From Eledone cirrhosa (lineage: Eukaryota), in the NCBI GenBank assembly GCA_964016885.1, contig OZ024762.1, positions 8,990,001-9,054,000 of the forward strand: DNA of 64,000 nt, given 5' to 3'. Position 1 is the stretch's first letter. Each line of letters begins with the position of its first letter. Shown here in pieces: positions 5,414 through 5,568 of this stretch. The notes under the pieces were generated by a model that worked only from the letters and a program-made list of their open reading frames with translations, had not been told where the DNA came from and searched no databases. A program made the translations under genes and the position numbers.

Positions 5414-5568
5414 TTCATTATTTCTGAAGACGGCGTATATATGTGTTAGGTATGTATATTTAATCTTGATAATTTGTATAATTTTGTATAATTTTGTACA
5501 TAGATCTGTTGAATATGCATACCAATTATAACACATATATACCCTAGAAACGATCGTTAAATAATGAA
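5414..5568 (+). ncRNA. Type I hammerhead ribozyme with 116-nt stem II (family B)
   Basis: TTCATTATTT-CTGAAGA-[116 nt; GTATATATGTGTTA/TAACACATATATAC and GGTATGTATATT/AATATGCATACC pair]-GAAAC-GATC-GTT-AAATAATGAA. Stem I is 10 bp; stem III is the palindrome ACGATCGT. Confidence 0.72.

Follow-up and report, generated by a model that had tools for sequence, protein, structure and literature searches.

The DNA analysed (hereafter the window) is a stretch of 64,000 nt from Eledone cirrhosa (assembly GCA_964016885.1, contig OZ024762.1, positions 8,990,001 to 9,054,000, forward strand). Reading of the sequence and folding identify at 5414-5568 a type I hammerhead motif, in which stem II measures 116 nt (Table 1). 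As proposed in a previous sequence-only reading of the window, the boxes CTGAAGA (5424-5430) and GAAAC-GATC-GTT (5547-5558) flank a 116-nt insert (5431-5546), and a perfect 10-bp stem I, formed by residues 5414-5423 and 5559-5568, closes the fold. The long hairpin reported to join the boxes includes the 14-bp helix described (5435-5448); the second helix (5449-5464) measures 16 bp, not 12. The 5414-5568 region folds at -48.2 kcal/mol (z -6.73), and 0/200 shuffles folded equally well. Cleavage is predicted to occur after 5558. The 10-nt stem III palindrome is predicted to form a duplex of -11.8 kcal/mol, the predicted pair probability of stem III in the monomer being 0.25.

Table 1. Features of the window, with coordinates, strand and remarks
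Feature	Position	Strand	Remarks
Inverted left arm of the fold-back	502..3058	-	identical hammerhead at 554-708; ends at short 3' end; window self-comparison
5'-truncated, microsatellite-rich 3' UTR of the element (fold-back right arm)	3059..5413	+	window self-comparison
Stem I 5' arm	5414..5423	+	10 nt; 7 nt if RNA starts at 5417; covaries between families
Putative transcription start (A of TCA, 7 nt before C3)	5417..5417	+	clustered 5' ends, foreign G
Hammerhead core box CUGAAGA (C3-A9)	5424..5430	+	U3-A8 variant in related families
Stem II domain, 116 nt	5431..5546	+	basal C-A and C-C mismatches, 14-bp and 16-bp helices, internal loops, apical hairpin
Candidate 5' splice site AG/GTATGT in stem II 5' arm	5448..5455	+	7/8 consensus letters in 5/6 A-E representatives
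Internal loop 5' strand (ANUK)	5471..5474	+	recurs across families
Internal loop 3' strand (YAG)	5501..5503	+	recurs across families
Core box GAAA, 2-bp stem III with palindromic loop, GUU triplet	5547..5558	+	sequence reading
Stem I 3' arm	5559..5568	+	folding
Second copy of stem I 5' arm (anti-stem I), predicted to capture 5559-5568	5599..5608	+	sequence repeat and folding
PLE tail	5620..5757	+	between short (about 5619) and long (5757) 3' ends; then (TA)n
Hammerhead copy at 3' end of ORF-bearing element	14614..14768	-	insert identical; G-U in stem I
5'-truncated Hydra-clade RT and GIY-YIG ORF	18422..20632	-	DKT, YRDD, CxCX5C, CxxC, CxH
Sister family B short copy, putative start to short 3' end	48104..48290	+	G8 deleted; comparison with family

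The motif at 5414-5568 features the CUGANGA and GAAA boxes, the A15.1-U16.1 pair and the NUH triplet of type I hammerheads. The C3-G8 pair is conserved, or compensated by U3-A8 in families E, E2, G5 and G9. The three-way junction with an open stem I is backed by covariation, and folding of longer segments predicts a competing hairpin. In families A-E a basal C-A mismatch takes the place of the canonical G10.1-C11.1 pair, and a canonical tertiary contact between loops I and II is unlikely. No Rfam family reached the gathering threshold in the window, where the hammerhead model missed short hammerhead-like motifs also. Other assignments were discarded. Rfam miRNA-precursor matches were found only at E 4.3-4.6, a stem II of 116 nt does not fit a minimal hammerhead of Penelope-like elements (PLEs; stem II up to about 8 bp), and a type III topology, with the cut placed at position -7, was dismissed by eye, the upstream triplet being unable to pair with GAAAC.

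The copy at 14614 keeps stem I through a G-U pair, as previously noticed, and lies on the minus strand. A third identical hammerhead, which the earlier reading did not include, resides at 554-708 (-); 553-5569 is therefore a 5-kb fold-back of two 5'-truncated copies, centred at 3058/3059. Its central arm is perfect over 444 bp (2615-3502), and the tail is found at one end only. The earlier assignment of the hammerhead to the tail is to be corrected, as the motif sits in the pseudo-LTR (pLTR), upstream of the tail proper. The relative at 48104 had been said to keep both the pairing and a GUA triplet. It folds well (z -4.73) and GUA is present, but G8 and two more letters found in its family are missing, and the copy starts inside stem I. 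Because of these losses it reads as a dead copy, family B itself reading as intact.

Further elements mark the window. A head-to-head hammerhead-like pair of another family, whose stem II measures 60 nt and whose core is CCGACGA (U4C), is found at 52984 (-) and 53018 (+), and five short hammerhead-like motifs (14-36-nt stem II), unreported by Rfam, at 12502 (+), 45433 (+), 54872 (+), 51547 (-) and 42379 (-). Segments 6770-10067 and 34617-38047 are a duplication of about 3.3 kb, with 94-99% identity and a 213-bp inverted segment at the end; no convincing ORF was found in the three parts translated. A tandem array with a 48-bp period spans 29707-31158.

The truncated ORF at 18422-20632 has an intact, full-length counterpart of 813 aa elsewhere in the 3.0-Gb genome, within a 6.6-kb unit. 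A single ORF encodes an RT with a GIY-YIG endonuclease after it at the C terminus, and features the DKT motif. The CxCX5C linker, CxxC and CxH were read from the translation by comparison with the feature list in PMC8557442, in which these motifs and DKT are assigned to the Hydra clade. The pLTR, the tail, partial tandems, inverted 5'-truncated copies and (TA)n targets are all as expected of the same clade. ORF homologues (n=36) include one from Octopus bimaculoides. A Pfam search gave no match for the 18422-20632 ORF, and the one GIY-YIG match, in a sister family, is below cut-off (E 3.6e-4). According to ORF motifs and element features, the element is classified by sequence as a young Hydra-clade PLE. 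Copies end at two sites, about 5619 and 5757, and continue into (TA)n; the two ends match the two RT start sites placed around the tail of the anole element in PMC11167929. The 3' UTR measures 3.1-4.1 kb in family A, compared with about 0.4-1.3 kb in relatives. The sequence is found in contigs of four sequencing runs from three differently labelled organisms, a DNA-like presence only. A selenoprotein PLE with a SECIS was rejected, as the 813-aa ORF is open under the standard code and has no in-frame UGA. A non-LTR retrozyme (short ORF-less hammerhead tandems) was rejected too, copies being solo, head-to-head or in 6.6-kb ORF-bearing tandems. A conserved RG-TYGAGC motif is located about 30-40 nt before the ATG in distant families, and a similar word is found in the tail (L061, L373, L290, L229, L364, L268, L305). 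Many short copies share one insertion site, the end of one SINE-like repeat (L089, L109, L118, L182, L187, others).

The core pattern with an 85-125-nt spacer is found 12,890 times in the genome (13 in the control), and 11,054 times (control 713) with another N7. Spacers of 40-84 nt gave 13,857 matches (control 579), spacers of 8-39 nt 13,414 (control 2,975). These counts partly overlap, include some false pairings and are not clean family counts, because some long-spacer matches are short hammerheads with a second upstream box (L164, L255) or chance matches (L239, L317). Clustering sorted 181 motifs from 308 loci into 30 clusters. Stem II lengths are a continuum, ranging across families from 11 to 117 nt. 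Long-arm hammerheads follow Hydra-type endonuclease domains, and arms of 75-117 nt reside in families with endonucleases at about 37-45% identity; identity to family A is 59-61% in family E and about 37-45% in G and H families. In a tree of 45 endonuclease rows and 151 columns, A-E and G form clades with support of 98/93 and 100/99, respectively, and all long-arm families group together, apart from the 11-nt family, with moderate support (87/87). One 102-nt family follows a different GIY-YIG ORF, at a single locus. A link to RTE-like LINEs was rejected, as these cases are insertions beside the LINE simple-repeat tail. At L173:1-1600 a hammerhead with a 78-nt arm lies 663 nt after a restriction-endonuclease-type LINE ORF, and is probably a nested insertion, as in the RTE cases. 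One family (L238, L093, L274) has a stem II of 93-97 nt predicted to fold as a branched three-way junction, and lacks the internal loop described below, no ORF being linked to it so far. CCGAAGA cores (U4C) mark families with short as well as long arms (L311, L044, others). In 78 related metagenome loci, 51 hammerheads were identified (49 in a first pass, 2 in a relaxed one), and stem II measures 10-25 nt in 51/51, in agreement with the notion that PLE hammerheads are normally minimal; both passes gave no hammerhead in 27/78.

The arm changes in sequence between families while its pairing is kept. When basal stem II positions 4-11 are counted ungapped from both core boxes, 7-8 of 8 pair within own arms in six representatives; A/B/C arms crossed with E/E2 pair at 2-3 of 8, D crosses at 3-7 of 8. 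RNAalifold gave 39 consensus pairs for 12 sequences, 12/39 with two-sided change, in an alignment which misplaces gaps in D and E. Stems I and II both covary between families. Family E, which entered the set through an unrelated internal CTGATGA rather than its real core, has a U3-A8 core and a compensated stem I. U3-A8 cores are found in two separate clades, in family E (clade A-E) and in family G5 (clade G), as in E2 and G9. The NUH triplet is present in all families shown; it belonged to the search patterns, and where families were found by pattern, their core conservation follows in part from the way they were selected. Basal C-C and C-A mismatches persist across A-E. The core had been expected to be more conserved than its flanks. 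This holds between families, but not within four young subfamilies (157/203 copies), in which the rate of rare substitutions is 1.0% for the core, against 0.5% for stem II and 0.9% for the downstream sequence. Since core rates are not below those of flanks, the core is unprotected after insertion, as expected of copies decaying once inserted. Stem II carries no trace of A-to-I editing (A>G per A 0.0025, T>C per T 0.0021). Copy number, covariation, U3-A8 swaps and the short arms of relatives elsewhere all sustain the earlier notion of an atypical PLE hammerhead with a giant stem II, catalysis being predicted from sequence. The motif is real, widespread and structurally constrained, and the hammerhead at 5414-5568 is likely to be self-cleaving and to work as a dimer.

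A 4x3 internal loop, 5'-ANUK-3'/5'-YAG-3', recurs in the long arms, between helices which vary in sequence. The loop was defined by eye on the same sequences in which it was counted, and the strict search required 3-bp flanks. It was found in 10/15 clusters of at least 75 nt, twice in four of them, at shuffle rates of 0.5-16% (one matching tandem-repeat artefact was set aside); it is missing from 5/15 long-arm families, and from all 10 clusters of 48-65 nt under the strict definition. All four families found later, G5 (6/7 sequences), G9, E2 and L311, feature the loop, at shuffle rates of 1.5-10%. It was not found in the G4-like copy L278, and the chance motif L317 matched it. Arms of 58-63 nt (L304:8274, L095, L279, related loci) share, by eye and outside the strict definition, an AGUC/(C)GAG loop, perhaps a C-G version of the 4x3 loop. 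The latter presumably resembles loop E or S-turn motifs. Since the conserved loop is located 27-43 nt away from the core, a canonical loop I/loop II contact is unlikely here; RT recognition, the other function suggested earlier for the extra domain, is still plausible. The arm exists and is conserved; with its recurrence in copies by the thousand and in many diverged families, the majority retaining pairing and internal loop, it is likely a working add-on domain.

The 5' ends of copies were analyzed in 99 of the first 100 matches listed to an anchor downstream of the cleavage site, the arms of inverted pairs being counted separately and thus not independent. In 32 of these 99 the first letter lies 1-8 nt ahead of C3, at exactly 7 nt in 18 of them; 10 start at 13-31 nt, mostly through over-extension into flanks rich in AT, the start of 14 falls inside the core or after it, and 43 reach further upstream. 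None of the 99 begins exactly at the cleavage site, in line with the use of uncleaved RNA as template described for the anole element (PMC11167929). In A-E, the A of TCA occupies position -7. In 649 copies G replaces the templated C before the -7 start, against 50 copies with G one position later, taken as control. The junction letter in the loci examined (n=53) is G in 10, A or T in 35, often with target microhomology, and C in 8. The addition of an extra G opposite the cap is an established behaviour of RTs. Because 5' ends cluster at this site and a foreign G precedes them, a capped transcription start at 5417 is the simplest reading of these sequences. Poly(A) cleavage could in principle make the -7 end, as A-D carry an AATAAA about 20 nt upstream, yet this origin is countered by the foreign G and by the boundaries in families lacking such an upstream signal. 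As many as 42/99 listed copies span only the region from about the start to a 3' end, which shows that this short unit is mobilised; 0/42 copies starting near 5417 run on into the ORF. Similar 5' boundaries mark short-arm families, and their occurrence in 11-nt, 62-nt and 85-nt families rules out the long arm as their cause. In Penelope, transcription starts inside the pLTR (PMC2377424), as in Chlamys-3, which has a 5' UTR intron also (PMC8557442).

Inclusion of the sequence downstream, which carries the anti-stem I, lowers the predicted probability of stem I in family A from about 0.9 to 0.01 or less. The competing hairpin is predicted in A-E and F, and is dominant in A-D and E2. In E it varies, stem I having a probability of 0.98-1.0 in one copy and of 0.15 in another, and folding did not reveal it in most G families.

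These data may be accommodated by a reading which comes close to an even chance, if somewhat short of it: a dimer-dependent hammerhead would lie at the start of the RNA and be mostly switched off by downstream sequences, the long arm being a handle for the element protein. If transcribed from 5417, the RNA would begin with the hammerhead, as its first 150 nt. When synthesis has gone past 5608, the downstream repeat would capture the stem I 3' arm and turn cleavage off, so that the tail and its two priming sites stay attached. The RT-endonuclease of the element would load on the long arm of uncleaved RNA, with the internal loop as docking handle, priming taking place at the two 3' ends, in (TA)n targets. 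Only within a brief co-transcriptional window, or in RNA dimers formed via the palindromic stem III, would cleavage occur. Against the handle, folding gives a weaker off switch in E and none in most G families. Arms of 8-39 nt also mark abundant families, which have the same fold-backs at the core; hence a long arm is not needed for PLE mobility generally. It is rather doubtful that stem II is a modular RNP domain in which the internal loop, present once or twice, binds the telomerase-related RT, while a buried splice donor and the anti-stem I leave the RNA to choose between cleavage, splicing for translation and service as uncleaved template.

Other readings, not all mutually exclusive, account for parts of the data. 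The arm may house an internal promoter and the donor of a 5' UTR intron, the helix hiding the donor so that the template keeps the intron, and splicing to an acceptor ahead of the ATG removing half of the ribozyme from the mRNA; as the hammerhead begins at the transcription start, both signals must sit inside it. In Penelope the promoter is internal and an intron lies 46 nt after the start (PMC2377424), and Chlamys-3 combines a start in the pLTR with a 5' UTR intron (PMC8557442). The donor-like site at 5450 is found at a homologous place, in three different sequences, in 5/6 A-E representatives (shuffle P 0.012-0.038); close to the ATG, the conserved TYGAGC follows an AG in A, E2, G2 and G3 as well as at a further locus. 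Only 2/11 G-clade sequences reach the same donor score, however, two loci have GG instead of AG at the acceptor-like place, and GTATGT is common in this microsatellite-rich genome. A search for spliced genomic copies gave one chance-like match only; PLEs are known to retain introns. The two-stranded internal loop is left unexplained, and this reading is unlikely. Equally hard to credit is a near-neutral growth of loop II through slippage at microsatellites and through fold-back duplication, in which selection demands only self-pairing and an undisturbed core. The helices of A-C are TA/TG-rich, the growth of the 3' UTR fits neutral expansion, and arm lengths are continuous (11-117 nt), families with short arms thriving. 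Yet a sequence-specific internal loop persists, often twice, between unalignable helices, the basal mismatches are kept across A-E, and relatives elsewhere never exceed 25 nt (51 motifs, 78 loci).

It is more improbable still that the arm is an RNA-only tertiary module, which docks on stem I, on the anti-stem-I hairpin or on a second RNA, and adjusts cleavage or dimer formation. Natural hammerheads react faster through peripheral contacts of stem I with stem II (PMC3088659), the palindromic stem III is predicted to give a stable duplex, and RNA dimers would also account for the frequent head-to-head pairs joined at the core. The distance of the internal loop from the core weighs against such a module, and head-to-head pairs are equally evident in the 11-nt family. 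Very improbable is that the motif is kept as a fold only, and cleavage lost. Metazoan PLE hammerheads cleave poorly in vitro (PMC4209133), catalytic mutants of the anole element had no effect on in vitro insertion (PMC11167929), and the off fold is predicted to be dominant. Two independent swaps from C3-G8 to U3-A8, and the triplet kept in all families shown, if a part of the search patterns, speak for cleavage.

The role of hammerheads in PLEs is described as an open question in PMC8557442. Arms of graded length (11-117 nt) occur here naturally alongside related RTs, and a young family has intact ORFs; together with the candidate start, the two 3' ends and the predicted refolding, they make both the role of cleavage and an RNA signal for a telomerase-related RT testable. 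Tens of thousands of pattern matches, with Rfam missing motifs in the window, suggest that length-limited descriptors undercount hammerheads. Some PLEs reported to have only half a core, at a long spacing of 35-50 nt (PMC8557442), merit re-examination.

Hydra-clade PLE hammerheads, including that of Hydra-1_Obim from O. bimaculoides (Craig et al. 2021, PMC8557442), are of the same type I and reside in a pLTR after the ORF. Shared features are an unpaired or mismatched first stem II position (the published Hydra hammerheads are also mismatched at G10.1-C11.1), a short stem III, GUA or GUU triplets and (TA)n targets, as the DKT, CxCX5C, CxxC and CxH protein motifs. In contrast, the 26/26 Hydra rows in file S2 of that paper list a stem II of 3-7 bp and loops of 3-10 nt, instead of the 75-117 nt with a conserved internal loop found here, and the unit measures 6.6 kb here, less than about 3 kb in the Hydra-clade PLEs it describes. 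Minimal PLE hammerheads, as reported by Cervera and de la Pena (2014, PMC4209133), likewise feature a palindromic stem III, implying dimeric cleavage, and an extra nucleotide after A9; the U3-A8 covariant of families E, E2, G5 and G9 is reported there in Schistosoma. Their helix II does not exceed 7-8 bp, whereas the element analyzed here has 116 nt, a C-A in place of G10.1-C11.1, and a stem I of 7-10 bp. An enlarged stem II is found also in Selaginella PLE-X1, marked as deviating in file S2 of PMC8557442 (PLE-X1_sMoe, 9-bp stem and 35-nt loop). The 53-nt domain of Selaginella PLE-X is the longest in that table, about half the length found here; these are single families of an endonuclease-less plant clade, and the table describes no covarying domain. 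Penelope of Drosophila virilis has transcription start and internal promoter in the pLTR (PMC2377424), where the putative start lies here also; its intron ends at helix I, the candidate donor here being inside stem II. In PAc of Anolis two RT start sites flank the tail, and uncleaved RNA is the template (PMC11167929), in parallel with the two 3' ends seen here. Unlike the element of E. cirrhosa, Penelope and PAc both have a short stem II (PMC2377424; PMC11167929). The literature searched gave no description of such long arms in PLEs or cephalopods. The kind of hammerhead is known from PLEs, and what appears to be new is the giant arm, longer than usual by a factor of about five to ten.
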